DNA from: Eledone cirrhosa
Lineage: Eukaryota
Length of the DNA: 64,000 bases
Reading direction: 5' to 3'
NCBI GenBank assembly: GCA_964016885.1
Contig: OZ024751.1
Location: forward strand, 15,252,001-15,316,000
The translations under genes and the position numbers were made by a program. Each line of letters starts with the position of its first letter. Position 1 is the first letter of the stretch. The notes beneath the pieces are model-generated. The model worked only from the letters and a program-made list of their open reading frames with translations, made no database searches and was not told the origin of the DNA. Shown piece after piece: positions 3,356 through 63,576 of this stretch.

Positions 3356-3398
3356 GGTTTATATATGTATGTGTGTGTGTGTGTGTGTGTATGTGTAC

Positions 3399-4474
3399 AT
3401 CATCATCATCATCATCATCGTTTAACGTCCATCTTCCACGCTTGCATGGGTTTGGACGGGAGTTTTTCCACTTGAGGCAAGATTGGTTATCCTGCTCATA
3501 TAGGACTGTCTGGCGGGTTTTCTACGGCTGGATGCCCTTCCTAACACCAACCACGTTTACAGTGTGTACTGGAAGGTTTTTACCGTGTTACCTACACGGC
3601 CACATTACAGCGTGGACTGTGTGTTTTTTTGTCGTGACACCTACACGACCTCATTTGTTTCAGACTGGATGTTGTGGTATCAACATAACTTCACATTTAA
3701 GGGGGTGGTGTGGATAGGGTGGGGGTAGTGGGACGGGGGTGTATTTTGTTAGAGGTGCCTACTGACTGTAGGTTTCGCTTTGTACTTAGGCAAGGCGGGT
3801 CTTCTGTATAACTGTGTAGCGCCAAAGATCTCGGTCCAGTGACATTGTCTTGGAGAGGTGTAAGTGTGTGAGGTCGGAATTTATCAAGTCGTCCCAGGTT
3901 TTTCTGGGTCTGTCTACTCCGTGGCTACCGTCTATTTTTATCGCCCTGCACTTTTTTATACAGCTGTCGTCTTTCATGCACATCACGTGACCGTACCAAC
4001 GTAGTCTTCTCTTGAGTAAACAACATCTGATCCCTCTTATTCCTAATTTCTCCCTTAGTTCGTTTATGCTTTGCCGTTCACGTATATTACTATTACACAT
4101 CCAGCGGAGTATGCAAGCTTCGTTTCTCTCCAGTCTGCGTATATCCTCTGCACACAATGCCCAGGTCTCACTGCCATGTAACATTGCTGTTCGTATGCAG
4201 GCATCATACAGCCTGCCTTTCATTTTTAGGGAGAACCCTTTAGTGGCCAATAGTGGTATAAGCTCTCTGAACTTTTTCCATCCCGTTCTGACTCTAGCTA
4301 CTGTACTTTCAGAGCACCCTCCTCCACTGCTGATTTTGTCACCCAGGTAAAGGAAGCTGTCCACTATTTCTATAGAACCATCTGTGCAATGGAATGAGCT
4401 AGTATTCTGTGAGCACTTACTGCTACTTATTGCACCAGAGCACCGGCCACATATAAAATCTATATTCTTAGTTA
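3399..4474 (-). mobile_element. 5'-truncated RTE-clade LINE (ORF C-terminus, 3' UTR, (GAT)n tail)
   Basis: ORF 3786-4474 nearly identical to C-terminal third of 52201-53862 (YLGDKISSGGG, HGSETW, RLRWYGHV, RPRKTW); 5' junction in (TA)n. Confidence 0.95.
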
Positions 4475-4533
<59 letters not shown>

Positions 4534-5136: not shown

Positions 5137-5660
5137 AATTGTTTCTACTTTTGGCACAAGGCCAGCAATTACCCAGTAAATTACTGCTACTTTATTTTAT
5201 CGACCCCGTAAGGATGAAAGGCAAAGTTAACCTCAACGGGATTTGAACTCAGACAGTAAAGGGACGTAACTATGCTAGAAAGCATGGAGTCCAACCCTCT
5301 ACCGATACTACCAATTCACCGCCCTGGTTTCTTTAAAATAATAATAATTGTTTCTACTTTTGGCACAAGGCCAGCAATCACCCAGTGCATTACTGGTACT
5401 TTATTTTATCGAGTACCAGTAATGCACAGGGTAATTGCTGGCCTTGTTTCTACTTTAGGCACAAGGCCAGAAATTTGAAGGGGGAGGGGAAAGTCAATTA
5501 AATCGACCCCAGTGCATTACTGGTGCTTTAGTTTATCAATCTCGCAAGAATGTGAGGCAACGCTAACCTCGGCGGGCTTTGAACTCAGAACGTAAAGGGA
5601 CATGACTCTATGCTACAAACCATGATGTCTGACTCTCTACCTATACTGCCAATCCACCAC
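5137..5660 (-). mobile_element. cluster of SINE copies in (TAA)n with a local fold-back inversion
   Basis: Repeated TTTCTACTTTTGGCACAAGGCCAG tails and GGATTTGAACTC heads; ~5365-5401 inverted at ~5412-5446. Confidence 0.8.
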
Positions 5661-5895: not shown

Positions 5896-7680
5896 AGAGA
5901 GATTGAGTTGGAAATGGAGAGTGGAGTATATCAGGCAAATGCGCCAGTGGGAAATGGAGGTGAAGAAGTTGAGAGACCTGAGGAAGCAACCAAAGCAGAC
6001 AATGATCTGAATGCTGAAATAAATAACATCTGGAACAAAGATACGGCCATTGATGAAATGCATGCTGACGGGCTAGGGCAAGATTTGGTCAATATTCTGA
6101 ACTTAGTGGTAGATGAAATGAACAATGATAGTGGAAAGCCTATGAACCTAAGATTTGTAGACAGGAAAAAGTTAAAAGAAACAACAGCTAAGGTAAACAA
6201 GGTCATCCCATACCTTGAGGCGAGGAAGCTTCACCAATGCAACAATATCCTCAAAGCAATCGCAAATGTGGTGAAAAAATTACTTGGTATAAAAACGAGA
6301 GGAAACAACAAACAAGAAAGATCAGAACCTCGGTGGAAGAAACGACTGAATGGTCAAAGCAAGGAAATGAGAAAAGACATTGGAAAGCTTGAGTCTTTAC
6401 TGAATGGGACTTTACAAAACATAGACACTAAAGATAGATTGAAAATAAAATACAAAACTAGGGGAAACTGTTAACAAGCATTGTGTCTGAAGAAATCTAC
6501 TATCACCTCCCCTTAAACAACTTGTTACCGGACAAACAGAAAGGATGTCGAAAGAAGTCCCATGGTACAAAAGACCAGTTACTTATTGATAAGATGGTAA
6601 TGAGGAATTACAAGAGGAGGCATACTGGTCTTGCCATGGGATGGATAGATTACAAAAAGGCATTCAACATGGTACCGCATTCTTGGATAACCAAAAGCCT
6701 AGAGATCTTCAAGGTGGCAGACAACATCAGACAGCTATTAAGTAAAAGTATGTAGTCCTGGGAAACAGAGCTAACATCAGGTGGAGAATCCTTGGGAGGC
6801 GTGAAGATCAAGAGAGGTATCTTCCAGGGAGATAGTTTGTCCCCTTTGTTGTTTGTCCTTACCCTCATACCCTTGCCCCTCATATTGCGAAAAGTGAGAG
6901 CAGGATACAAGCTGGGAAGAGGAGAGCTTACCATCAACCACCTCCTCTTCATGGATGATCTTAAACTCTTTGGGAAGAGTGAGAAGGAGTTGGATGTACT
7001 TGTTGACACTCCGTATTTTCAGCAATGATATATGTATGGAATTTGGTGTTAATAAGTGTGGAGTCCTAGTGATGAAGAGGGGTAAATTGAGCAGAAGCGA
7101 CGGAATCCAGGTACCAACAGGTGAGATGATAAAGGAAATTGACACTGAAGAGGGATACAAATATTTAGGTGTCTGGAGGCAGATGACATCAAGAACAAAA
7201 AAATGAAGGAATTGATAAGATCTGAATACACAAGGAGAGTAAGGAACATACTAAAATCACATCTAAATAGTAGGAATGTCATAAGTGCAGTAAATTCCCG
7301 AGCTGTGTCTATTATTAGGTACAGTGTGGAAATTCTGAAATGGAATGTTGCTGAACAAAAAGAAATGGATAGGAAGACTAGGAAGTTAATGACTATCTAC
7401 AACATGTTCCACAAGAGGAGTGATGTTGATAGACTCTACTTAAAGAGATCTAAAGGTGGATGAGGTCTTCTCAGCATAGAGGACTGTGTTCAGATGGAAA
7501 AAAACAGTCTGCACAAATATGTGGCTGACAGTAGGGAGCCAATGCTCAAAATTGTACTGAAGGAGAAGACAATAGACCAAGGGATGTCCAAGGAAGAAAT
7601 AACAACAAGAAGGAAGAGCAACCTTCATGAAAAATCCCTTCTTTAAGAAAACGGAATTCAGAGATCCACAGACATGGAAC
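5896..7680 (+). mobile_element. decayed Dong/R4-clade LINE, reverse transcriptase pseudogene
   Basis: QKGCRKKSHGTKDQLLID, WIDYKKAFNMVPHSWI, GIFQGDSLSPLLF, NHLLFMDDLKLF, YKYLG, DVDRLYL split by stops and frameshifts; starts at (TAA)n. Confidence 0.92.
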
Positions 7681-7944
7681 ATTATGAAATGTAATCTTTA
7701 TGGTACATTATGAGCAAGGGAGTGAGCAGAGAGGGGATTCTCAACACTATGGTCAGGAGGGGTGTGCCTACAAATGCCACAAAATAGATGTCAAATGATG
7801 ATGATGATGATGATATATCCTGATCATCATCATCATAATCCTCATTTAATAATTGTTTTCCCTGTTAGCAAGGATTGGAAAGATCTTCACAGATTGAGTC
7901 AGTACTCAAGCAGGACTAATCACCTCTCTGATGAACTAGGATCC

Positions 7945-8410
7945 TCCCACTCTGTAAAGTGGTCATGTTGGTGACACAATAAAAAGTGCCCAGCCGACAC
8001 TGTAAAGTGGTCGTGTAGGTGTCACAATAAAAAGCACTCAGTCTACACTATAAAGTGGTTGTGTAGGAGTCACAATAAAAATCAGCCAGCCCACACTGTA
8101 AAGTGGTCGTTTAGGAGTCATGCATGATAAAAAGCGCCTAGTCCCCACTGTAAAGTGGTTGTGTAGGAGCCACAATAAAAAACTCTCAACTGTAAAGTGG
8201 TTGTGCAGGAATCTCGATAAAAAGCGCCCAGTCACACTTTAAATGTGGTTGGCATTAGGAAGGGCATCCAGCCATAGAAACCAAGCCAAAATCAGTTATG
8301 TGTGAGCAAAACACGGTCCCCCGACCTGGCTTGTCTCACAATGGGACAGCTCGTCTAACCCACCCTAGTGTGCGAAATGGACGTTAAACGATAATGATGA
8401 TGATGATAAT
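7945..8410 (+). mobile_element. RTE-type 3' tail with ~43-bp internal tandem repeats
   Basis: Several CACTGTAAAGTGGT...AATAAAAAG units, then GGCATTAGGAAGGGCATCCAGC...GGACGTTAAACGATAATGATG. Confidence 0.75.
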
Positions 8411-13219: not shown

Positions 13220-13920
13220 CTAAACTATAATAATATATATAATATATTTAAATAGTTCTCTCTTTTTTACCACCACTATATTTACTCTACATTATTCTCA
13301 TAAAATAATCTTTCACTACTTATATATTATAATGCAATACACATTGTAAATTTAGACAGCCGGTATGTATTAAGTGGCTATATACTTTAAACTGTTCATC
13401 TAGTAGATCTCCCTCTCTCTCTATATACGTACGTATATACACAATATATATATATATTATATGTGCGTGAATATATTTCCTGACGAGGAACTGAGTGGAT
13501 ACAAATATTTAAACTCTACATCTGTGTATGTATTGAATACTTTATTAAAAAATGGTCTTAGTTTAATAACTGAGAATTACACCCCCCCCCTTCTTGAGAG
13601 AGAGTGTATGTATGTGTGGGTATGTTAGTGTCTATATTTATTACCTCTGTGTTAGTCCATTCTCTCAACCACCACCACGTCTCGTCAGCATTCTCACACA
13701 AAGGTAAACATTTCCACCACACACCTCATTAACGCAGGCTCTCAGACACATATACTTCCTAGTGTGACCCACAAACATCCACATTATGCCTTATGACATA
13801 CAGAGTAGATGGAGGTTGTCCAGCTGCGATTTCTTTCACGCTTTGACTTCAATATCTACCTCCCACTCTGCGCGCGCGCGCACACACACTCACGCGCACA
13901 CACACATTATATATATATAT

Positions 13921-14116
13921 AATAGAAATGATTTCTACAGGACTAGAACTGTTTCATTCGTAAGAAATCATCAGGACTTTCCTGTTGATTTCTTACAAAT
14001 GAAACAGCTCTAGTCCTGTAGAAGTCATTTCAATTATAAAATGAATATGCCTATACTCTTCTAGCGTAATGAGTACCTTGTTTAACAGTGGTTTCCTCAC
14101 GATTTTCATCGGGATT
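13921..14116 (+). mobile_element. TA-inserted fold-back element with hammerhead motif in each arm
   Basis: Inverted arms ~13922-13976 / ~13980-14034; + arm GACTTTC-CTGTTGA-stemII-GAAA-CAG..CTG-TA-GAAGTC; - arm retains CTGATGA. Confidence 0.7.
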
Positions 14117-14303
14117 ATATATATGTATATATATATGGGTCTGGAAACGTTGATAAATTATGAACGTGAGAACTCTTTGATTCGAATGAACGGAATTGTT
14201 TAGGTCTTAAAAATGAAACATGAAAGTAGTCGTGTTTTCAACAACATATGTATAAAAGAAGGGCTGTTCTCCATACTGCTATATATATATATATATATAT
14301 ATA

Positions 14304-14433
14304 TAACGAAGGAATTGTGGTAAGGAACCAGATGGACCATAACGCACCAAAGTACTCAATACTTAGGGTAGTAGAGTGGGTAATAGGAACAAGTATGACC
14401 CCAACGGCAGAGCTCAAGCCATTTCGACGGCTA
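14304..14433 (-). mobile_element. copy of the 15240-15369 element (3' half of hammerhead plus tail)
   Basis: Reverse-complement match to 15241-15369 with scattered substitutions; abuts (TA)n. Confidence 0.8.
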
Positions 14434-15176: not shown

Positions 15177-15179
<3 letters not shown>

Positions 15180-15367
15180 GGAACGAGTAGGACCCCGACG
15201 GCTGAGCTCAAGCCGTTTCGACGGCTAAATCTGGACTTATTAGCCGTCGAAACGGCTTGAGCTCAGCCGTCGGGGTCCTACTCGTTCCTATTACCCACTC
15301 TACTACCCTAAGTATTGAATACTTTGGTGCGTTATGGTCCACCTGGTTCCTTACCACATTTCCTCCG

Positions 15368-15369
<2 letters not shown>
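15177..15369 (+). mobile_element. TA-inserted fold-back element with hammerhead 3' half
   Basis: 52-bp inverted arms 15177-15228 / 15240-15291; GAAA-CGGC-TTGAGCTCA-GCCG-TC (stem III and GUC) at 15249-15271; no CTGANGA. Confidence 0.75.
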
Positions 15370-15407
<38 letters not shown>

Positions 15408-15413
<6 letters not shown>

Positions 15414-15800
15414 AAAATATAAATATTAATAAAATAGATGTTCTTTTGATCAATTACATTTTATTATACATATTTCGGATGTACAACAGTACGTCCTCAT
15501 CAGACAAAATATAATGATACATGACATACCCTGAGATCTTAAATGGTTAAGATTTAATCAAAGTATTAATACCTTGATTAAATCTTAACCATTTAACATC
15601 TCAGGGTATGTCATGTATCATTACTGTTGTACATCCGAAATATGTATAATAAAATGTAATTGATCAAAAGAACATCTATTTTATTAATATTTATATTTTA
15701 ATATTGATAACTCCGGAAAATTATTTTGCCGTAGAGTGCTTCCAATCTACTGTAAAACTCATTCTTTGACATACTCATTGAATATTGTTTAACACTTTTA
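15408..15800 (+). mobile_element. Penelope-like fold-back element in (TA)n
   Basis: Near-perfect palindrome 15408-15705 centred at 15567/15568, plus unique 3' extension to the TA tract; contains hammerhead. Confidence 0.8.
15453..15515 (-). ncRNA. minimal type I hammerhead ribozyme
   Basis: ATTATATTTTGT-CTGATGA-GGACGTAC(TGTT)GTACATCC-GAAA-TATGTAT-A-ATAAAATGTAAT: 12-bp stem I with two G-U, stem II with one mismatch, short stem III, AUA site. Confidence 0.85.
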
Positions 15801-18164: not shown

Positions 18165-18519
18165 ATATATACATATATATACACACTCATTCATAGATGC
18201 ATGCATGGTTGAGCTGAATAACACCATTTAACAAACATCCAGCAGTGACATTTGTCTTCCACAAACAGTACTTCCTGCAGTGGTTTAACGAATATAAGCG
18301 TGATACACCATACTTAAATAAAGAATGGGTTGGCTTCGGGAAGAGCAGCAACTTGAAGAAAACCTGCCACAAAAAGTTTCATACTACTCAATCACATGGA
18401 AAAAGTGATGATGTTCCTGCTTAGTAATAAATTTTATCTGAAATATTGAAGGAGTGGGCTGTAGTTGATTGAAATATCTTCAGTATATAGTTGGTATTAA
18501 TTTATTGGTGCCAGTAATG

Positions 18520-19795
18520 CTGGTGTTACAATAAGATGCACTGAGCCTACTCTGTAAAGTGATAGTGCCTCAATAAAAAAAGCACCGAGTTCACCTTATT
18601 AGGTGGTAGTGCTGGTGCCTCAATACAAAGCACTGAGTCTACCCAATAAGATGGTAGTGTTGGTGTCATGATTAAAAGCACTCAATTTTCACCCTTTTAG
18701 GTGGTAGTGCTGGTGCCTCAATATAAAAGGATTGAGTGCACTGTGTAAGGTGGTAGTGCTGGTGCCTCAATATAAAAGGATTGAGTGCACTGTGTAAGGT
18801 GGTAGTGCTGGTACTTCAGCATAAAAGCATTGTGTTCACTGTTTAAGGTGGTAGTGCTGGTGCCTCAGTATAAAAGCATTGAGTGCACTGTGTAAGGTGG
18901 TAGTGCTGGTGCCTCAGTATAAAAGCATTGAGTGCACTGTGTAAGGTGGTAGTGCTGGTGCCTCAGTATAAAAGCATTGAGTGCACTGTGTAAGGTGGTA
19001 GTGCTGGTGCCTCAGTATAAAAGCATTGTGTTCACTGTGTAAGGTGGTAGTGCTGGTACCTCAGTATAAAAGCATTGTGTTCACCGTTTAAGGTGGTAGT
19101 GCTGGTGCCTCAATATAAAAGGATTGAGTGCACTGTGTAAGGTGGTAGTGCTGGTACTTCAGCATAAAAGCATTGTGTTCACTGTTTAAGGTGGTAGTGC
19201 TGGTGCCTCAGTATAAAAGCATTGAGTGCACTGTGTAAGGTGGTAGTGCTGGTACTTCAGCATAAAAGCATTGTGTTCACTGTTTAAGGTGGTAGTGCTG
19301 GTGCCTCAGTATAAAAGCATTGAGTGCACTGTGTAAGGTGGTAGTGCTGGTGCCTCAGTATAAAAGCATTGAGTGCACTGTGTAAGGTGGTAGTGCTGGT
19401 GTCTCAGTATAAAAGCATTGAGTGCACTGTGTAAGGTGGTAGTGCTGGTGCCTCAGTATAAAAGCATTGTGTTCACTGTGTAAGGTGGTAGTGCTGGTAC
19501 CTCAGTATAAAAGCATTGTGTTCACCGTTTAAGGTGGTAGTGCTGGTGTCATGATAGAAAGTACTCAATTTTCATCCTTTAAGGTGGTAGTGCTGGATTC
19601 TTGATAAAATCTTCCTAGTATACACTGTAAAGTGGTTGGCATTAGGAAGGGCATCCAACTAGACACCAAGCCAAAAAGGGAGCGTATGAAATGGAGCCAG
19701 TAGTCGTCACCTGGCCAGTCTAGTCTCAGTACCTGACAACCTGTCTAAACTATGCAAGCCTGAAAAATAGATATTAAACAGTGATGATGGTGATT
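18520..19795 (+). repeat. 49-bp minisatellite (~20 units) expanded inside an RTE-tail element
   Basis: Unit AAGGTGGTAGTGCTGGTGCCTCAGTATAAAAGCATTGAGTGCACTGTGT (starts 18845, 18894); runs into GGCATTAGGAAGGGCATCC...GATGATG tail. Confidence 0.92.
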
Positions 19796-29423: not shown

Positions 29424-29645
29424 TCCTGTAATTTGGTAAAGAAGAATATCAAAGTTTGGAGAACACTCAATCTGTGGGACTAACTGTACTGTCATGTAGG
29501 TAGCAATGTTTCTTTGGATGCCTGTTTATTTCAGATATCTCTAAGTCAGGCCCCAAATCATCAGCCTATATTGATAATTTGGGGCCTGACTCAGAAATAT
29601 TTGAAATAGACAATCAAAGAAGCATTTATGCTTAAATGACAGTGT
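29421..29645 (-). mobile_element. older TA-inserted fold-back element
   Basis: (TA)n both sides; imperfect inverted arms ~29505-29562 / ~29569-29626; CTGATGA and GAAA on minus strand but stem II not intact. Confidence 0.55.
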
Positions 29646-33618: not shown

Positions 33619-34701
33619 GTAAAGTGAGAATAAGCAGTAAGTTTAGTGAGGAATTCAGTTTAGTGGCTGATGTCCTTCAAGTCTTTGTTATCTGCCTATA
33701 TCTGCTTTCCTGGACTATGTGCTGATGACCTCGTACATATAGCTAAACTTGTGGATGTTTTCTGGGTTTCTGAGATAAACACTAAACATGTATAGAATCA
33801 TTATAATATTTGTTACTAATGGTGACTGTTTATTTCAAAGTTTTCCTGAAACATTGAAATATACAGTCACCTTTAATAACAATTATATATGACAAGAAGC
33901 ACCTGGTCCACACTGTAAGGTGCTAGTGCATGAGTCACAATAAAATGCTGCCAGTACACACTGTAAATTGGTTGTTGCTAGGAAGAGCACCCAACCATAG
34001 AAACCAAGCTAAAAATGGAGTGTACAAGCAAGACACGGTTACCTGACCAGTCTAGACTCCGTACATGACAGCTTATCTAATCCATCTGAGCATGGAAAAT
34101 AGATGTTAAGTGATGATGATGATATAACTTTATTTACTGTTCAACTTTATTTATTGTTCAAAGCTTTAAAGAGTCAGAAGAAGGTAATCTATCTGACACT
34201 CTAACAACTCTTGTTGAAGCAAGACACCCTTCTTGACACCATCTCTTTTAGTCACTTCTTACGACATGCTGGAATATGGTATATCTATTCTGAACTAGAT
34301 ACACATTCTACATATATGTGTACTCATCATCATCATTGTTTTTATGTCTACTTTTCCATGCTGGCATGGGTTGAACAGGATGCTTTGAGACAATGTTTTA
34401 TAGCCAGATGCTCTTCTAGACACTAACCCTTTTAGTCATTTCTTATGACATGCAGCAATATGTTGTATCTACTCTAAAAACTGTGCTACATATGCTATAT
34501 GTATGTATTTCTGTATGTGTATATATGTGTGTGCGTGTGCATAGAATAATAAAGAAAACAGAAGCCAGGTGTAGGTAGTTAATTGTTTTACGATCATTTC
34601 AGAGGGTCGACTGATCAATGGGGATCAATGTATCGACTAGAATGGTAGTGGTTATGTTATTACCTACTTCTTATATACATATATACATATATACATATAT
34701 A

Positions 34702-47229: not shown

Positions 47230-50200
47230 TAAATACCTATATTACTATTAGCAGTTGAGAAATAGTAGTTTTATTACCATTAGCAGTAGTAAAATGATAG
47301 TATTATTACTTACGGGGTCGATAAAATAAAGTACCAGTAATGCACTGGGTAATTGCTGGCCTTGTGCCTAACGTAGAAACAATTATTACTCTTAGCAGTA
47401 GAGAAATGATAGTCTTATAACTGTTATCAGTAGAGAAATAGTAGTTTTATTACCATTAGCAGTAGAGAAATGGTAGTGTTATTACTGTTAGGAGTAGAGA
47501 AATGGTAGTGTTATTACTGTTAGGAGTAGAGAAATGGTAGTGTTATTACTGTTAGGAGTAGAGAAATGGTAGTGTTATTACTGTTAGCAATAGAGAAATG
47601 GTAGTTTTATTACTGTTAGCAATAGAGAAATGGTAGTGTTATTACTGTTAACAATAGAGAAATGGTCGTGTTATTACTGTTAGGAGTAGAGAAATGGTAG
47701 TGTTATTACTGTTAGGAGTAGAGAAATGGTAGTGTTATTACTGTTAGTAATAGAGAAATGGTAGTGTTATTACTGTTAACAATAGAGAAATGGTCGTGTT
47801 ATTACTGTTAGGAGTAGAGAAATGGTAGTGTTATTACTGTTAGGAGTAGAGAAATGGTAGTGTTATTACTGTTAGCAGTAGAGAAATGGTAGTTTTATTA
47901 CTGTTAGCAATAGAGAAATGGTAGTGTTATTACTGTTAGCAATAGAGAAATGGTTGTGTTATTACTGTTAGGAGTAGAGAAATGGTAGTGTTATTACTGT
48001 TAGCAGTAGAGAAATGGTAGTGTTATTACTGTTAGGAGTAGAGAAATGGTAGTGTTATTACTGTTAGTAATAGAGAAATGGTAGTGTTATTACTGTTAAC
48101 AATAGAGAAATGGTCGTGTTATTACTGTTAGGAGTAGAGAAATGGTAGTGTTATTACTGTTAGGAGTAGAGAAATGGTAGTGTTATTACTGTTAGTAATA
48201 GAGAAATGGTAGTGTTATTACTGTTAACAATAGAGAAATGGTCGTGTTATTACTGTTAGGAGTAGAGAAATGGTAGTGTTATTACTGTTAGGAGTAGAGA
48301 AATGGTAGTGTTATTACTGTTAGCAGTAGAGAAATGGTAGTTTTATTACTGTTAGCAATAGAGAAATGGTAGTGTTATTACTGTTAGCAATAGAGAAATG
48401 GTTGTGTTATTACTGTTAGGAGTAGAGAAATGGTAGTGTTATTACTGTTAGCAGTAGAGAAATGGTAGTGTTATTACTGTTAGCAATAGAGAAATGGTTG
48501 TGTTATTACTGTTAGCAGTAGAGAAATGGTAGTGTTATTACTGTTAGCAGTAGAGAAATGGTAGTTTTATTACTGTTAGCAATAGAGAAATGGTAGTGTT
48601 ATTACTGTTAGTAGTAGAGAAATGGTAGTGTTATTACTGTTAGCAGTAGAGAAATGGTAGTGTTATTACTGTTAGCAGTAGAGAAATGGTAGTTTTATTA
48701 CTGTTAGCAGTAGAGAAATGGTAGTGTTATTACTGTTAACAATAGAGAAATGGTCGTGTTATTACTGTTAGGAGTAGAGAAATGGTAGTGTTATTACTGT
48801 TAGGAGTAGAGAAATGGTAGTGTTATTACTGTTAACAATAGAGAAATGGTAGTGTTATTACTGTTAGCAGTAGAGAAATGGTAGTGTTATTACTGTTAGC
48901 AGTAGAGAAATGGTAGTTTTATTACTGTTAGCAGTAGAGAAATGGTAGTGTTATTACTGTTAACAATAGAGAAATGGTCGTGTTATTACTGTTAGGAGTA
49001 GAGAAATGGTAGTGTTATTACTGTTAGCAGTAGAGAAATGGTAGTTTTATTACTGTTAGCAATAGAGAAATGGTAGTGTTATTACTGTTAACAATAGAGA
49101 AATGGTCGTGTTATTACTGTTAGGAGTAGAGAAATGGTAGTGTTATTACTGTTAGGAGTAGAGAAATGGTAGTGTTATTACTGTTAGCAGTAGAGAAATG
49201 GTAGTGTTATTACTGTTAGCAGTAGAGAAATGGTAGTGTTATTACTGTTAGGAGTAGAGAAATGGTTGTGTTATTACCGTTAGGAGTAGAGAAATGGTAG
49301 TGTTATTACTGTTAGCAGTAGAGAAATGGTAGTTTTATTACTGTTAGCAATAGAGAAATGGTAGTGTTATTACTGTTAGCAATAGAGAAATGGTTGTGTT
49401 ATTACTGTTAGGAGTAGAGAAATGGTAGTGTTATTACTGTTAGCAGTAGAGAAATGGTAGTTTTATTACTGTTAGTAATAGAGAAATGGTAGTGTTATTA
49501 CTGTTAGTAGTAGAGAAATGGTAGTGTTATTACTGTTAGCAGTAGAGAAATGGTAGTGTTATTACTGTTAGCAGTAGAGAAATGGTAGTGTTATTACTGT
49601 TAGCAGTAGAGAAATGGTAGTGTTATTACTGTTAGGAGTAGAGACATGGTTGTGTTATTACCGTTAGTAGTAGAGAAATGGTAGTGTTATTACTGTTAGC
49701 AGTAGAGAAATGGTAGTGTTATTACTGTTAACAATAGAGAAATGGTAGTGTTATTACTGTTAGCAGTAGAGAAATGGTTGTGTTATTACTGTTAGTAGTA
49801 GAGAAATGGTAGTGTTATTACTGTTAGCAGTAGAGAAATGGTAGTGTTATTACTGTTAGCAGTAGAGAAATGGTAGTGTTATTACTGTTAGGAGTAGAGA
49901 AATGGTAGTGTTATTACTGTTAGTAGTAGAGAAATGGTAGTGTTATTACTGTTAGCAGTAGAGAAATGGTAGTGTTATTACTGTTAGGAGTAGAGAAATG
50001 GTAGTGTTATTACTGTTAGGAGTAGAGAAATGGTAGTGTTATTACTGTTAGGAGTAGAGAAATGGTCGTGTTATTACTGTTAGGAGTAGAGAAATGGTAG
50101 TGTTATTACTGTTAGCAGTAGAGAAATGGTTGTGTTATTACCGTTAGGAGTAGAGAAATCGTAGTGTTATTACTGTTAGCAGTAGAGAAATGGTAGTTTT

Positions 50201-51088
50201 ATTACTGTTAGCAATAGAGAAATGGTAGTGTTATTACTGTTAGCAATAGAGAAATGGTTGTGTTATTACTGTTAGGAGTAGAGAAATGGTAGTGTTATTA
50301 CTGTTAGCAGTAGAGAAATGGTAGTTTTATTACTGTTAGCAATAGAGAAATGGTAGTGTTATTACTGTTAGTAGTAGAGAAATGGTAGTGTTATTACTGT
50401 TAGTAGTAGAGAAATGGTAGTGTTATTACTGTTAGCAGTAGAGAAATGGTAGTGTTATTACTGTTAGCAGTAGAGAAATGGTAGTGTTATTACTGTTAGC
50501 AGTAGAGAAATGGTAGTGTTATTACTGTTAGGAGTAGAGAAATGGTTGTGTTATTACCGTTAGTAGTAGAGAAATGGTAGTGTTATTACTGTTAGCAGTA
50601 GAGAAATGGTAATGTTATTACTGTTAACAATAGAGAAATGGTAGTGTTATTACTGTTAGCAGTAGAGAAATGGTTGTGTTATTACTGTTAGTAGTAGAGA
50701 AATGGTAGTGTTATTACTGTTAGCAGTAGAGAAATGGTAGTGTTATTACTGTTAGCAGTAGAGAAATGGTAGTGTTATTACTGTTAGGAGTAGAGAAATG
50801 GTTGTGTTATTACCGTTAGTAGTAGAGAAATGGTAGTGTTATTACTGTTAGCAGTAGAGAAATGGTAGTGTTATTACTGTTAACAATAGAGAAATGGTAG
50901 TGTTATTACTGTTAGCAGTAGAGAAATGGTAGTGTTATTACTGTTAGGAGTAGAGAAATGGTTGTGTTATTACCGTTAGTAGTAGATAAATGGTAGTGTT
51001 ATTACTGTTAGCAGTAGAGAAATGGTAGTTTTATTACTGTTAGCAGTAGAGAAATGGTAGTGTTATTACTGTTAGGAGTAGAGAAATA
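47230..51088 (+). repeat. 32-bp satellite array (~115-120 units)
   Basis: Unit AGTAGAGAAATGGTAGTGTTATTACTGTTAG(C/G); starts 47461, 47493; diverged left edge with SINE fragment 47311-47390. Confidence 0.97.
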
Positions 51089-51409
51089 GTTTCGGATGGT
51101 TACAGATAATTGTACCAGTCCCTGTTGGTTAAACTCTATAATTTCTCTTGTTCTTAAGCTTTTGACTCATTTATCATTGTTTGGTGAATATGTGACCCAG
51201 GAAATTGAACTGACTAAATAACATTGTTAACTATTGTGAATTATCAATGGTAATTGTTGTTGACCTTCAAACCTAGAACTTGCTCTGTGTGTGTGCTTTT
51301 TATATACACAGATTTGTATTATGTGTGCTTGGTTGTTGACTTTTCCACTTTCTCAGTTTTTATATTTAAGATGACCAAATACCAAGTTTAGATTTGTTCC
51401 TATATTTTT

Positions 51410-51916: not shown

Positions 51917-52118
51917 ATAAATGAGTTAACTGTAATGACTACGACATATTGGTATGGATATTTAGGGTTCAGATTAAAATGTATGTCATGTAGGTATAGA
52001 ATAATATTTGAGGAGGGCGTTTAGCTAAGGAATGAATGATAAGGTATCACAGATGGAATGTTTGGGTGAGGATGATTATGATTACAAGAAAATGTTTTAT
52101 TCTTGATGTATTGTGAAC

Positions 52119-52149
<31 letters not shown>

Positions 52150-52153
<4 letters not shown>

Positions 52154-54268
52154 GGGAGAAAGACAGTCTCCCCCATATCGACCCAATAGAGGGACCAGCA
52201 GTGTTAGTCGAGGGGAGTATAATAAGTAAGGCAATCAAGGATATGAAGACGGGTAAGGCGGCTGGGCCTTCGAAAATAGTTGCTGAGATGCTGAAGGCAT
52301 CTGGCACGGTGGGACACACCATGGTCACCCGCATAGTTAACCAAGTCGTACAGAATGGGGTTGTTCCGAAGGACTGGCATAGCAGCATCATCGTTAACTG
52401 TTATAAGGGTAAAGGAGACGCCCTAGATAGGAGTAACTATAGAGGCATTAAATTAATCGACCAGGTCATGAAGGTCACGGAAAAAGTAATAGCGCAACTA
52501 ATCAGAGAGAGAATTGACCTAGATGAAATGCAGTTCGGGTTTGTGTCAGGCAAAAGTACCACAAACGCTCTTTTCATAGTACGACAACTACAGGAGAAGT
52601 ACCTAGCTAAAGGTAAACCCCTCTACTTAGCTTTTGTCAACTTGGAGAAAGCCTTCGACAGAGTCCCCCGCTCCATTATCTGGTGGGCTCTTAGAAAACT
52701 AGGCGTTGACGAATGGCTTGTGAGGGCTATACAAGCCATGTATAAAGAAACAGTCAGCAAGGTTAGAATTAACAACGAATATAGTGAAGAGTTTAGCGTA
52801 AAAGTTGGCGTCCATCAGGGCTCTGTTCTCAGCCCCCTACTATTTATTATTGCCCTTCAGGCTATAACAGAGGAGTTCAAGACAGGCTGCCCATGGGAAC
52901 TCCTATACGCAGATGACCTGACACTCATAGTGGAATCAATGGCCGAGCTAGAGAAGAAATTCCAAACATGGAAGCACGGCCTAGAGTCAAAAGGACTTAA
53001 AATTAACCTGGCTAAGACCAAAGTTCTAGTTTGTAGGAAAGAAAACAAGGTGGCGGTCCCTTCTGGGAAATGGTCGTGCTCGGTGTGTAGGAAAGGCGTA
53101 GGTAGAAACTCCATTTTATGTCCTAAATGCAAAGTATGGGTGCATAAAAGATGTAGTGGGATCACAGGTAAGCTAACTAAGAACATAGATTTTACATGTG
53201 GCCGGTGTTCTGGTGCAATAAGTAGCAGCAAGTGCCCACAAAATACTAGCTCTTTCAATTGCGCAGAGGGTTCTATAGAAATAGTGGACAGCTTCCGTTA
53301 CCTGGGCGATAAAATCAGCAGTGGGGGAGGGTGCTCTGAAAGTACTGTAGCTAGAGTCAGAACTGGTTGGAAAAAGTTCAGAGAGCTTATACCACTATTA
53401 GCTGCTAAAGGGTTCTCCCTAAAAATGAAAGGCAGGTTGTACGATGCCTGCATACGAACAGCAATGCTGCATGGCAGTGAGACCTGGGCATTGTGTGCAG
53501 AGGATATACGCAGACTAGAGAGGAACGAAGCTTGCATGCTCCGCTGGATGTGTAACAGTAATATACGTGAACGGCAAAGCATAAACGAACTAAGGAAAAA
53601 ATTAGAGATAAGAGGGATCAGATGTTGTTTACTCGAGAGAAGGCTACGTTGGTATGGACATGTGATGCGCATGAAAGTCGATAGCTGTATAACAAAGTGC
53701 AGGGCAATAAAGATAGACGGTAGTCACGGAATAGGCAGACCTAGAAAAACCTGGGACGAGCTGATAAACTCCGACATCACACACTTACACCTCTCCAAGA
53801 CAATGTCACTGGACCGAGACCTTTGGCGGTACTCAGTAACAGAGAAGACCCGCCTTACCTAAATATATAGTAAAACCTGCTCCAACCAGTAGGCATCTCT
53901 AACAAAATACACCCCGTCCCACCACCACCACCCCCACCCCATCCACACCACCCCGTTCTATGTAAAGTTATGTTGGTGCCGCGCCATAGGCCGAAACAAA
54001 TGAGATCGTGTAGGTGTCACGACAAAAAAAAAACACACAGTCCACGCTGTAATGTGGCCGTGTAGGCAACACGGTAAAAACCTCCCAGACCCACACTGTA
54101 AATGTGGTTGGTGTTAGGAAGGGCATCCAACTGTAGAAAACCTGCCAGACAGTCCTATGCGAGCAAGACAATCACTCTTGCCTCAAGTGGGACTACCCCC
54201 GTCCAAACCCATGCAAGCGTGGAACACGGACGTTAAACGTAGATGATGATGATGATGATGATGATGAT
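52150..54268 (+). mobile_element. 5'-truncated RTE-clade LINE in (TA)n
   Basis: Open RT frame, 3' UTR and (GAT)n tail; no endonuclease region. Confidence 0.97.
52201..53862 (+). CDS. RTE reverse transcriptase (N-terminally truncated) with PHD-like C4HC3 finger
   Basis: KAAGP, NYRGI, QFGF, LEKAFD, GVHQGSVLSPLLF, LLYADD, CSVC..CPKC..HKRC..CGRC, YLG, GRPRKTW; 553 aa without stops. Confidence 0.93.
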   Translation: MLVEGSIISKAIKDMKTGKAAGPSKIVAEMLKASGTVGHTMVTRIVNQVVQNGVVPKDWHSSIIVNCYKGKGDALDRSNYRGIKLIDQVMKVTEKVIAQLIRERIDLDEMQFGFVSGKSTTNALFIVRQLQEKYLAKGKPLYLAFVNLEKAFDRVPRSIIWWALRKLGVDEWLVRAIQAMYKETVSKVRINNEYSEEFSVKVGVHQGSVLSPLLFIIALQAITEEFKTGCPWELLYADDLTLIVESMAELEKKFQTWKHGLESKGLKINLAKTKVLVCRKENKVAVPSGKWSCSVCRKGVGRNSILCPKCKVWVHKRCSGITGKLTKNIDFTCGRCSGAISSSKCPQNTSSFNCAEGSIEIVDSFRYLGDKISSGGGCSESTVARVRTGWKKFRELIPLLAAKGFSLKMKGRLYDACIRTAMLHGSETWALCAEDIRRLERNEACMLRWMCNSNIRERQSINELRKKLEIRGIRCCLLERRLRWYGHVMRMKVDSCITKCRAIKIDGSHGIGRPRKTWDELINSDITHLHLSKTMSLDRDLWRYSVTEKTRLT

Positions 54269-54365
54269 ATATATTTATGTAAAAGGTAACCAGAAATAAC
54301 AACACAATCGGTACAGTATATGGAAGGTATATATTAGGTTAACGCTTGATATAGCAGGAAGCGGG

Positions 54366-54401
54366 TCTTAATGTTTCGGACGCTAGTCCTTCATCAGAAG
54401 A
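54366..54401 (-). ncRNA. minimal hammerhead-like motif in element ~54272-54550
   Basis: TCTT-CTGATGA-A-GGAC(TAGC)GTCC-GAAA-CATT-AAGA; extra A after core, rudimentary stem III. Confidence 0.65.
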
Positions 54402-54755
54402 AAGAATGAGAAATAAGATAAATTGAGGGGACGGGCGGGTTGGAATTGGAAAAATGTCTTTAGATAAAAATAACAGGTCCATTCATGTTGACATCTCTTG
54501 CAAAACTGTTGATGTTGTTGTTTTGTGTATGATTTATGTTTTAGAAAAGTATATAATCATCATCATTGTTTAACATCCATTCTTCTATGCTAGCATGGAA
54601 GAATGGACATAAAATGGTGATGATAAACGTTGATTGCCAAATAAATTAACTATGGAGATATAAAAAATACAGAAGCGAAAACCAACCAAACAGTGAGTGT
54701 GTTCTGTTAGTATTTCTGGCAATATTATTACAACAATATGACTCTCCTCAAGTAT

Positions 54756-54829
<74 letters not shown>

Positions 54830-55018
54830 CTTCAAGCAAACTTTAACACCCTCATATATATATATATATATATTTTGAGTTTATGTTGGTTGTATACCAA
54901 CACCTCAGTATGCAGGCTGGAGCACTCGACGAAGTGCGCAGGTTGGTTTGGTTACTCCGGAGTAGTGTAAAATAAAGTTAAATAAAAGTCAAATGATTAA
55001 AATTTAGCTTCGTTTATT

Positions 55019-55073
55019 ACTGCTATATATATTTCAGTGACAGCCATCTTTGGCTGTGACCTCTTCAGGCAGT
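55019..55073 (-). ncRNA. minimal type I hammerhead ribozyme
   Basis: ACTGC-CTGAAGA-GGTCACAGCCA(AAGA)TGGCTGTCACT-GAAA-TATATAT-A-GCAGT. Confidence 0.88.
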
Positions 55074-55295
55074 TTGAATTAGTATGGTATAGACAAGTAC
55101 ATATGTTGTTTAGGTGTATGATATTGTCAATACTCTGATATGCCCAGTTCCTTGTTGGGTTGTTAATTCACTGGGGAACTATGACTCCAGTTCCCCAGTG
55201 AATTAACAACCCAACAAGGAACTGGGCATATCAGAGTATTGACAATATCATACACCTAAACAACATATGTACTTGTCTATACCATACTAATTCAA

Positions 55296-55350
55296 ACTGC
55301 CTGAAGAGGTCACAGCCAAAGATGGCTGTCACTGAAATATATATAGCAGT
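55296..55350 (+). ncRNA. minimal type I hammerhead ribozyme (inverted copy)
   Basis: Same sequence as 55019-55073 on the opposite strand. Confidence 0.88.
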
Positions 55351-55394
55351 AATAAACGAAGCTAAATTTTAATCATTTGACTTTTATTTAACTT

Positions 55395-55432
<38 letters not shown>

Positions 55433-55602
55433 GGTAACAAGTTTTTGTTATAGGTAATCCAGTTAGAGGTTGTGAATACTCCATATTGTGGATAGTTTTA
55501 GCATACAACGTTGACTCAACAAGAGGTTTCCTTAGGTAGCGAGTATATAAGTTCTCGGGAGTCCCTATGTAAGTTAATCTTGGAGTAATAATAGGGAAAG
55601 GG

Positions 55603-55638
55603 TCTCAATGTTTCAGACACTAGTTCTTCATCAGAAGA
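55603..55638 (-). ncRNA. degenerate hammerhead-like motif, same family as 54366
   Basis: TCTT-CTGATGA-AGAACTAGTGTCT-GAAA-CATT-GAGA in TA-flanked element 55431-55658. Confidence 0.55.
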
Positions 55639-55719
55639 TAGAATAAGAAATAAAAGATATATGTATATATATATTTGTGTGTGTGTGTGAGTGTGTACAT
55701 ATGTATATGTATATATATG

Positions 55720-63248: not shown

Positions 63249-63303
<55 letters not shown>

Positions 63304-63423
63304 AAGGTTTTATTTAAAATTGTTGGGTTACAAGTAAATATTTACTACCCAGACAGCTTCCTAATTTAATGGTCGCTTATAATATGGTACGTCAAAATTA
63401 TTTATAAAACTGTTTATATATTG

Positions 63424-63489
63424 TATTTTATCTGACGAAGGCATGCCATATTTTTAATATGGTATCCCTGAAATATGTATAATGAAATA
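63424..63489 (+). ncRNA. minimal type I hammerhead ribozyme in TA-flanked element 63301-63530
   Basis: TATTTTAT-CTGACGA-AGGCATGCCATATT(TTT)AATATGGTATCCCT-GAAA-TATGTAT-A-ATGAAATA; stems III and I resemble 15453-15515 while stem II differs. Confidence 0.87.
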
Positions 63490-63526
63490 AATATGGTTTT
63501 ATAAATATAGTTTCCATTTGGTTAAT

Positions 63527-63576
<50 letters not shown>

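Follow-up and report, generated by a model that had tools for sequence, protein, structure and literature searches.

A 213-bp hammerhead palindrome in Eledone cirrhosa with the anatomy of a head-to-head Penelope-like element insertion

Insertions of Penelope-like elements (PLEs) are described as carrying an inverted, 5'-truncated copy beside the pseudo-LTR (pLTR), a tail of 30-40 bp that is often found at one end only, hammerhead ribozymes in the pLTRs and a bias towards (TA)n targets; the way in which the inverted copies are made is listed there as unresolved (PMC8557442). The palindromes at the inverted junctions are mostly head to head and have been read as products of self-priming (PMC3846280). 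Dual minimal hammerheads on opposite strands, about 100-700 bp apart, are reported from PLEs. In this type of hammerhead the G10.1-C11.1 pair is described as highly conserved, a single motif does not cleave and dimers cleave poorly (PMC4209133). In vitro, both strands of AT-rich DNA are cleaved by a PLE protein and then extended by it, and reverse transcription starts at two sites that bound the tail. Cleavage by the ribozyme needs the PLE protein, and insertion does not need cleavage (PMC11167929).

The window, a 64-kb stretch of Eledone cirrhosa DNA, contains a palindrome whose two arms of 213 nt lie 8 nt apart and are complementary at 213 of 213 positions (100%) in a self-comparison of the window (Table 1). 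This is far beyond chance and bears out the original prediction of identical 213-bp arms with an 8-nt spacer. The borders of the mirror are also those of the element, with a tail of 95 nt on the left and, on the right, TA followed by unique DNA. The hammerheads of the two arms point away from each other, which makes the joint between the copies a head-to-head one. Since the left copy runs on for 95 nt to its TA tract and the right copy passes straight into TA, the insert extends over 54873-55401, is asymmetric and is no terminal-inverted-repeat element. Both of its ends are within TA repeats, which makes a target-site duplication unreadable. The 8 nt between the arms are not a neutral loop but the first 8 nt of the right-hand copy: loose ends of family sequences behind 55180 match their reverse complement. 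The right copy thus has its full 5' end, which in the left copy falls short by 8 nt. The family unit is about 316 nt long. Its 5' end is fixed and precedes the predicted cut site by about 165 nt, a putative internal start lies at position 221, and the tail ends at 316.

Table 1. Parts of the insert and further hammerhead palindromes of the 64-kb window
Feature	Position	Strand	Basis
Left (TA)n tract, putative target site	54854..54872	.	sequence
95-nt one-sided 3' extension (tail) of left copy, in repeat family	54873..54967	-	sequence; family contig/read depth
Left arm: inverted copy, unit positions 9-221, without first 8 nt	54968..55180	-	self-comparison, family reads
Type I hammerhead of left copy, core 55068-55062 + 55035-55032, predicted cut after 55024	55019..55073	-	motif scan
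Spacer: 5' end of family unit, part of right copy	55181..55188	+	X1/X24 loose ends behind 55180
Right arm: 5'-complete copy, tail-less, T-rich tract at TA repeat as end	55189..55401	+	self-comparison
Type I hammerhead of right copy, CUGAAGA at 55301, G10.1·U11.1, ATATATAT helix III, predicted cut after 55345	55296..55350	+	motif scan, folding
Right (TA)n tract, putative target site	55402..55430	.	sequence
Hammerhead palindrome of a different family; TA on both sides, near-zero spacer, 94-nt one-sided extension, 22-nt deletion removing right-arm core	15408-15705, to 15799 with extension		
Older hammerhead palindrome, diverged arms; TA flanks, ~77-nt one-sided extension	13918-14038, to 14115 with extension		
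Older hammerhead palindrome, decayed, diverged arms; TA flanks, 67-nt one-sided extension	29488-29643, from 29421 with extension		

The same self-comparison revealed three further palindromes with hammerhead cores. They belong to other families, are flanked by TA and carry one-sided extensions of 67-94 nt. The head-to-head anatomy occurs four times in the window, and the three others are decayed. Homology between the tails of the units at 55 kb and 15 kb is suggestive only, 68 of 2000 shuffles giving an equally good alignment.

The unit belongs to an abundant repeat family. A word search with 54873-55184 listed 24 runs, 16 of them with some of its words and 10 of these with at least half. None of the runs that contain the unit's words is recorded as RNA, which has no bearing on its expression. 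Four of the listed runs (X1, X5, X17 and X24) were aligned to 54873-55200, a reference that includes only 20 nt of the right arm. Family contigs numbered 2620 in X1 (691 at >=99% identity) and 240 in X5; X24, which has the same organism label and comes from a separate study, gave 7350 raw family reads, 1608 at >=99% identity. These counts indicate a high-copy repeat with a near-identical subfamily, tail included. Run X8 (organism E) contains 0.63 of the unit's words, and the run X17 of the same label gave 0 reads in 1.9 billion letters, about 1/100 of the run being sampled; low copy number, a mixed sample or transfer between species are possible.

The loose ends behind 55180, present in 14 contigs of X1 and 540 reads of X24, show a single difference from the spacer in reverse complement. 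The consensus of the 14 contigs runs into a second 5' end and so forms a head-to-head junction with zero spacer. Five of the eight listed joints have one side at 55180/55181 and the partner at 54905, 54993, 55032, 55053 or 55073, a pinning at the 5' end that is only approximate because breakpoints are fuzzy by about 8 nt and the reference holds 20 nt of the right arm. The 5' end is not involved in the remaining three. Among nine entries of a further listing there are three more joints pinned in this way (partners 55113, 55133 and 55142), and two of the pinned joints come from contigs with depths of 10.8 and 28.8. Chimeras occur in X24 at AATT sites (55001, 55077 and 55165); 55180 is no such site, and the joint at 55073 lies 4 nt from one.

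Each arm contains one type I hammerhead with CUGAAGA, detected by a motif scan. It consists of a 5-bp helix I, a helix II of 9-10 bp interrupted by a single C-C mismatch, GAAA and a ATATATAT helix III, and cleavage is predicted after AUA. The core (CUGANGA, GAAA and UH) is present with helices I and II in both arms. Under relaxed settings the scan counted 6 hammerheads in the window, where 20 shuffles gave 0-2 (mean 0.35), and helices I and II form part of the lowest-energy fold of 55285-55360 (z = -2.67; 1 of 200 shuffles equally stable). The pair that closes helix II (10.1-11.1) is G·U in both arms, not the canonical G-C. The canonical C at 11.1 (position 55036) makes up 31-43% of the family depth, with 1705 of 4005 covering reads (~43%) in X24. 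A literature search found no account of the effect of G10.1·U11.1 on cleavage. Among 40 of the 91 family variants, those listed, none falls on the 13 core positions, one restores C11.1, one rare variant affects helix I, and loop II has two (Fisher p = 0.027); this placement hints that the ribozyme may be under constraint in the family.

By folding, an intramolecular helix III is unfavourable by 3.4-4.5 kcal/mol. Upon cofolding, ATATATAT gives an 8-bp intermolecular helix, and the lowest-energy dimer misfolds the core. The two hammerheads of the insert, being of opposite polarity, are unable to form a double hammerhead in cis. No Rfam hammerhead was matched at the gathering threshold, and none up to E=10 on 55185-55420, where three sub-threshold matches to other Rfam entries were put down to chance. 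A match to SNORA11 across the centre of the palindrome (36.5 bits, gathering threshold 36) was read as a product of the hairpin. The description of the two hammerheads as apparently intact stands for the full type I core and the palindromic helix III of each arm. It applies at the level of sequence alone, in view of the G·U pair, the unfavourable monomeric helix III and the Rfam result. The hammerheads appear to be passengers of the pLTR.

A read-through transcript of either strand is predicted to fold into a hairpin of -412.6 or -418.7 kcal/mol, in which the pairing probability of helices I and II is 0.0. The expectation that a transcript of either strand would form a long hairpin abolishing the ribozyme fold is upheld by this model. 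Transcription from either side reaches the antisense arm before the ribozyme. In a transcript that starts at the centre of the palindrome, helix II is kept (0.70-0.77) and helix I partly kept (0.15-0.38), according to the folding.

The insertions of endonuclease-bearing PLEs (Penelope/Poseidon, Neptune and Nematis; PMC8557442, PMC3846280) are described with the same traits as the window insert: head-to-head copies of which one is truncated, an extension at one end, a hammerhead in the repeat, a (TA)n target and a palindromic junction. Of the marks of an EN+ PLE insertion, a hammerhead in the terminal repeat, an inverted 5'-truncated copy at the 5' end and a (TA)n target are present. With the dual minimal hammerheads of PLEs (PMC4209133) the insert shares the type I core, the long helix II, the short helix I, the palindromic helix III and the pairing on opposite strands, here about 230 bp apart. 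In contrast to the EN+ insertions as published, it has no open reading frame, its tail is 95 nt long and not 30-40 bp (67-94 nt at the three other loci of the window), and an autonomous partner was not found. The inverted truncated copy, the one-sided tail, the (TA)n target and the opposite-strand hammerheads are all already in the PLE accounts cited here, a link that the original prediction did not make, and the departures from those descriptions are only the 67-95-nt tails and the G·U pair. A literature search for non-autonomous head-to-head palindromes of PLEs found no such account.

Neither a PLE reverse transcriptase nor a GIY-YIG frame was found in the insert or among the 150 of 303 open frames of the window that were searched with Pfam, and to judge from its sequence the insert would be a non-coding PLE-type stub, not an autonomous PLE. 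Membership in the PLEs rests on anatomy, as no such frame was found beside the unit and no autonomous partner emerged from metagenomes. The locus is very probably a single insertion of a short (~316 nt), non-coding, high-copy repeat together with an inverted partner. The repeat would be either the pLTR terminus of an endonuclease-bearing PLE or a non-autonomous element derived from such a PLE.

Several other readings have been considered. Animal non-LTR retrozymes (PMC7229834; 10.64898/2026.07.22.740005) are likewise described as non-coding units of ~300 nt with a type I hammerhead and high copy number, and the unit could be a monomer of such a tandem element, with a circular RNA intermediate, inserted in inverted orientation. 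The size of ~316 nt, the low GC content and the type I hammerhead fit (PMC7229834), and the retrozyme and PLE readings overlap because the preprint derives retrozymes from PLE pLTRs (10.64898/2026.07.22.740005). However, the unit is not arranged in head-to-tail tandem, no direct repeat of it occurs in the window, it has a tail, and its 5' end is fixed and not permuted, with none of the listed joints linking the end of the tail to the 5' end; a retrozyme monomer is an improbable source. A MITE or fold-back DNA transposon was rejected, since the left terminus lies 95 nt past the mirror and the junctions differ between copies. It is most unlikely that the palindrome is an artefact of assembly or of a chimeric read. 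Arm identity of 100% is typical of a chimera or of over-polishing, no listed contig spans the stretch, and the exact junction of the locus was not singled out in the reads, where those carrying it would align straight and look like the rest in the alignment tables. But the mirror ends exactly at the element boundaries and its flanks differ, unlike those of a chimeric read; the same class of junction is found in the two short-read contigs of known depth and in raw reads of another study, and the window holds older palindromes of like construction whose arms are diverged. The absence of differences over 213 nt bounds the divergence of the arms below 1.4% (95%). Identical arms agree with a young insertion but are no proof of one, since they might also result from homogenisation by polishing or gene conversion; 'very recent', as the insertion had been called, is a loose term. 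A regulatory role, with the palindrome as part of a host transcript in which it prevents the ribozyme from cleaving and serves as a substrate for ADAR or Dicer, is very improbable. The hairpin is thermodynamically certain if the locus is transcribed through, and antisense small RNAs are reported on rotifer Penelope families (PMC3846280). Yet Pfam revealed no host exon in the 150 of 303 frames, the arrangement occurs four times in 64 kb with the three others decayed, and the monomeric ribozyme is not expected to cut (PMC4209133; folding). There is probably little cleavage to silence, because the monomeric helix III is unfavourable, copies of opposite polarity cannot pair as a cis dimer, and such monomers are reported as inactive. 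The proposal that cleavage of a host pre-mRNA is silenced and that ADAR or Dicer acts on the hairpin finds no support in these results, and most likely the locus is inert.

The likeliest origin of the inverted pair is priming on two strands. A PLE RT/GIY-YIG protein acting in trans would nick both strands of a (TA)n tract, and each nicked strand would prime reverse transcription on the element RNA, a scheme taken from in vitro work on one lizard element. Synthesis would begin in one case where the tail ends (unit position 316), in the other at the internal start (221). One cDNA would then reach the 5' end of the RNA, the other would halt 8 nt short, and the 3' ends of the cDNAs would be joined. 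What is directly seen is the tail, the inverted truncated copy and the 5'-complete copy between TA tracts, the family, and its junctions with one pinned and one variable side. Two-strand priming would explain why the tail is on one side, why it is the tail-less arm that has the complete 5' end, and why the joints are pinned on one side and variable on the other. Within the same class of element, the second arm could instead stem from self-priming or fold-back of a single strand, or a perfect palindrome could later have lost 8 nt at its tip, which together are possible but rather unlikely. Perfect palindromes are known to suffer tip deletions. Fold-back is favoured by the zero- and near-zero-spacer junctions in this family and at 15408-15705, and the palindromic inverted junctions of rotifer Penelope elements were read as self-priming on an antisense template (PMC3846280). 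However, fold-back of a cDNA started at the tail should preserve positions 1-8 in the arm with the tail, where they are missing, and a cDNA started at position 221 would have no template for the tail. Tip deletion is opposed by partner arms that are shortened by up to ~275 nt with the other side still at the 5' end. The original prediction of insertion by fold-back synthesis is retained in so far as the inverted duplication was born at insertion; simple fold-back leaves the complete 5' end of the tail-less arm unexplained.

As a single locus, the insert carries little weight: it looks young and illustrates an insertion pattern that is already published. The junctions of the family, with one end pinned and the other variable, together with the long tail could help to test the origin of inverted PLE copies. 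On a speculative and doubtful view, several short, non-autonomous families derived from PLEs exist in this animal lineage, their 5' ends fixed and their tails 2-3 times as long as published. Head-to-head pairs would be so frequent among their insertions, with four in 64 kb, that perfect hairpins for editing or for self-silencing by small RNAs might be seeded genome-wide; the spectrum of junctions could then decide between two-strand priming and self-priming.

Searches outside the window with the family-specific pattern gave 0 loci in metagenomes. A general pattern gave 14 metagenome and 4 prokaryote loci, most of which look like chance matches in coding DNA, and none of these loci resembles the window element beyond the core. 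L001 (duplicated as L011 and homologous to L004/L008) is an AT-rich, ORF-poor contig with two hammerhead-bearing head-to-head inverted pairs in 9.3 kb (3992-4339 and 7627-8012). This metagenome contig looks like animal host DNA; it is unrelated to the window insert and seems to share its architecture.

In the 150 of 303 open frames searched, Pfam found no host gene above cut-off; what it returned were remnants of LINE-like elements with RT and PHD/C1 domains, a single DUF6451 match below cut-off and weak sub-threshold matches. A position of the palindrome inside a large host intron is possible and compatible with this result. A sigma-70 promoter scan was set aside as inapplicable to an animal genome. 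The forward strand at 52117-53862 holds an open frame of 581 aa with an RVT_1 domain and a PHD-like finger, part of a LINE-like element that we take to be of the RTE type; a partial copy of the frame, 89% identical, lies at 3398-4475. A direct repeat of 81% identity (54351-54423 and 55588-55660, minus strand) brackets the insert, and in each member there is a minimal hammerhead, now decayed, that belongs to a different family (54397-, 55634-). Additional palindromes or inverted pairs were seen at 2-329, 15177-15291, 5365-5447, 33806-33886 and 14280-14433 with 15241-15394, and the motif scan detected no hammerhead core in 15177-15291, 5365-5447 and 33806-33886. Long tandem arrays occupy 47240-51091, where the offsets of self-alignment suggest a unit of ~32 nt, and 18514-19596. 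A solo hammerhead unit with CUGACGA at 63432 and a ATATGTAT helix III lies between two TA tracts at about 63300-63531.
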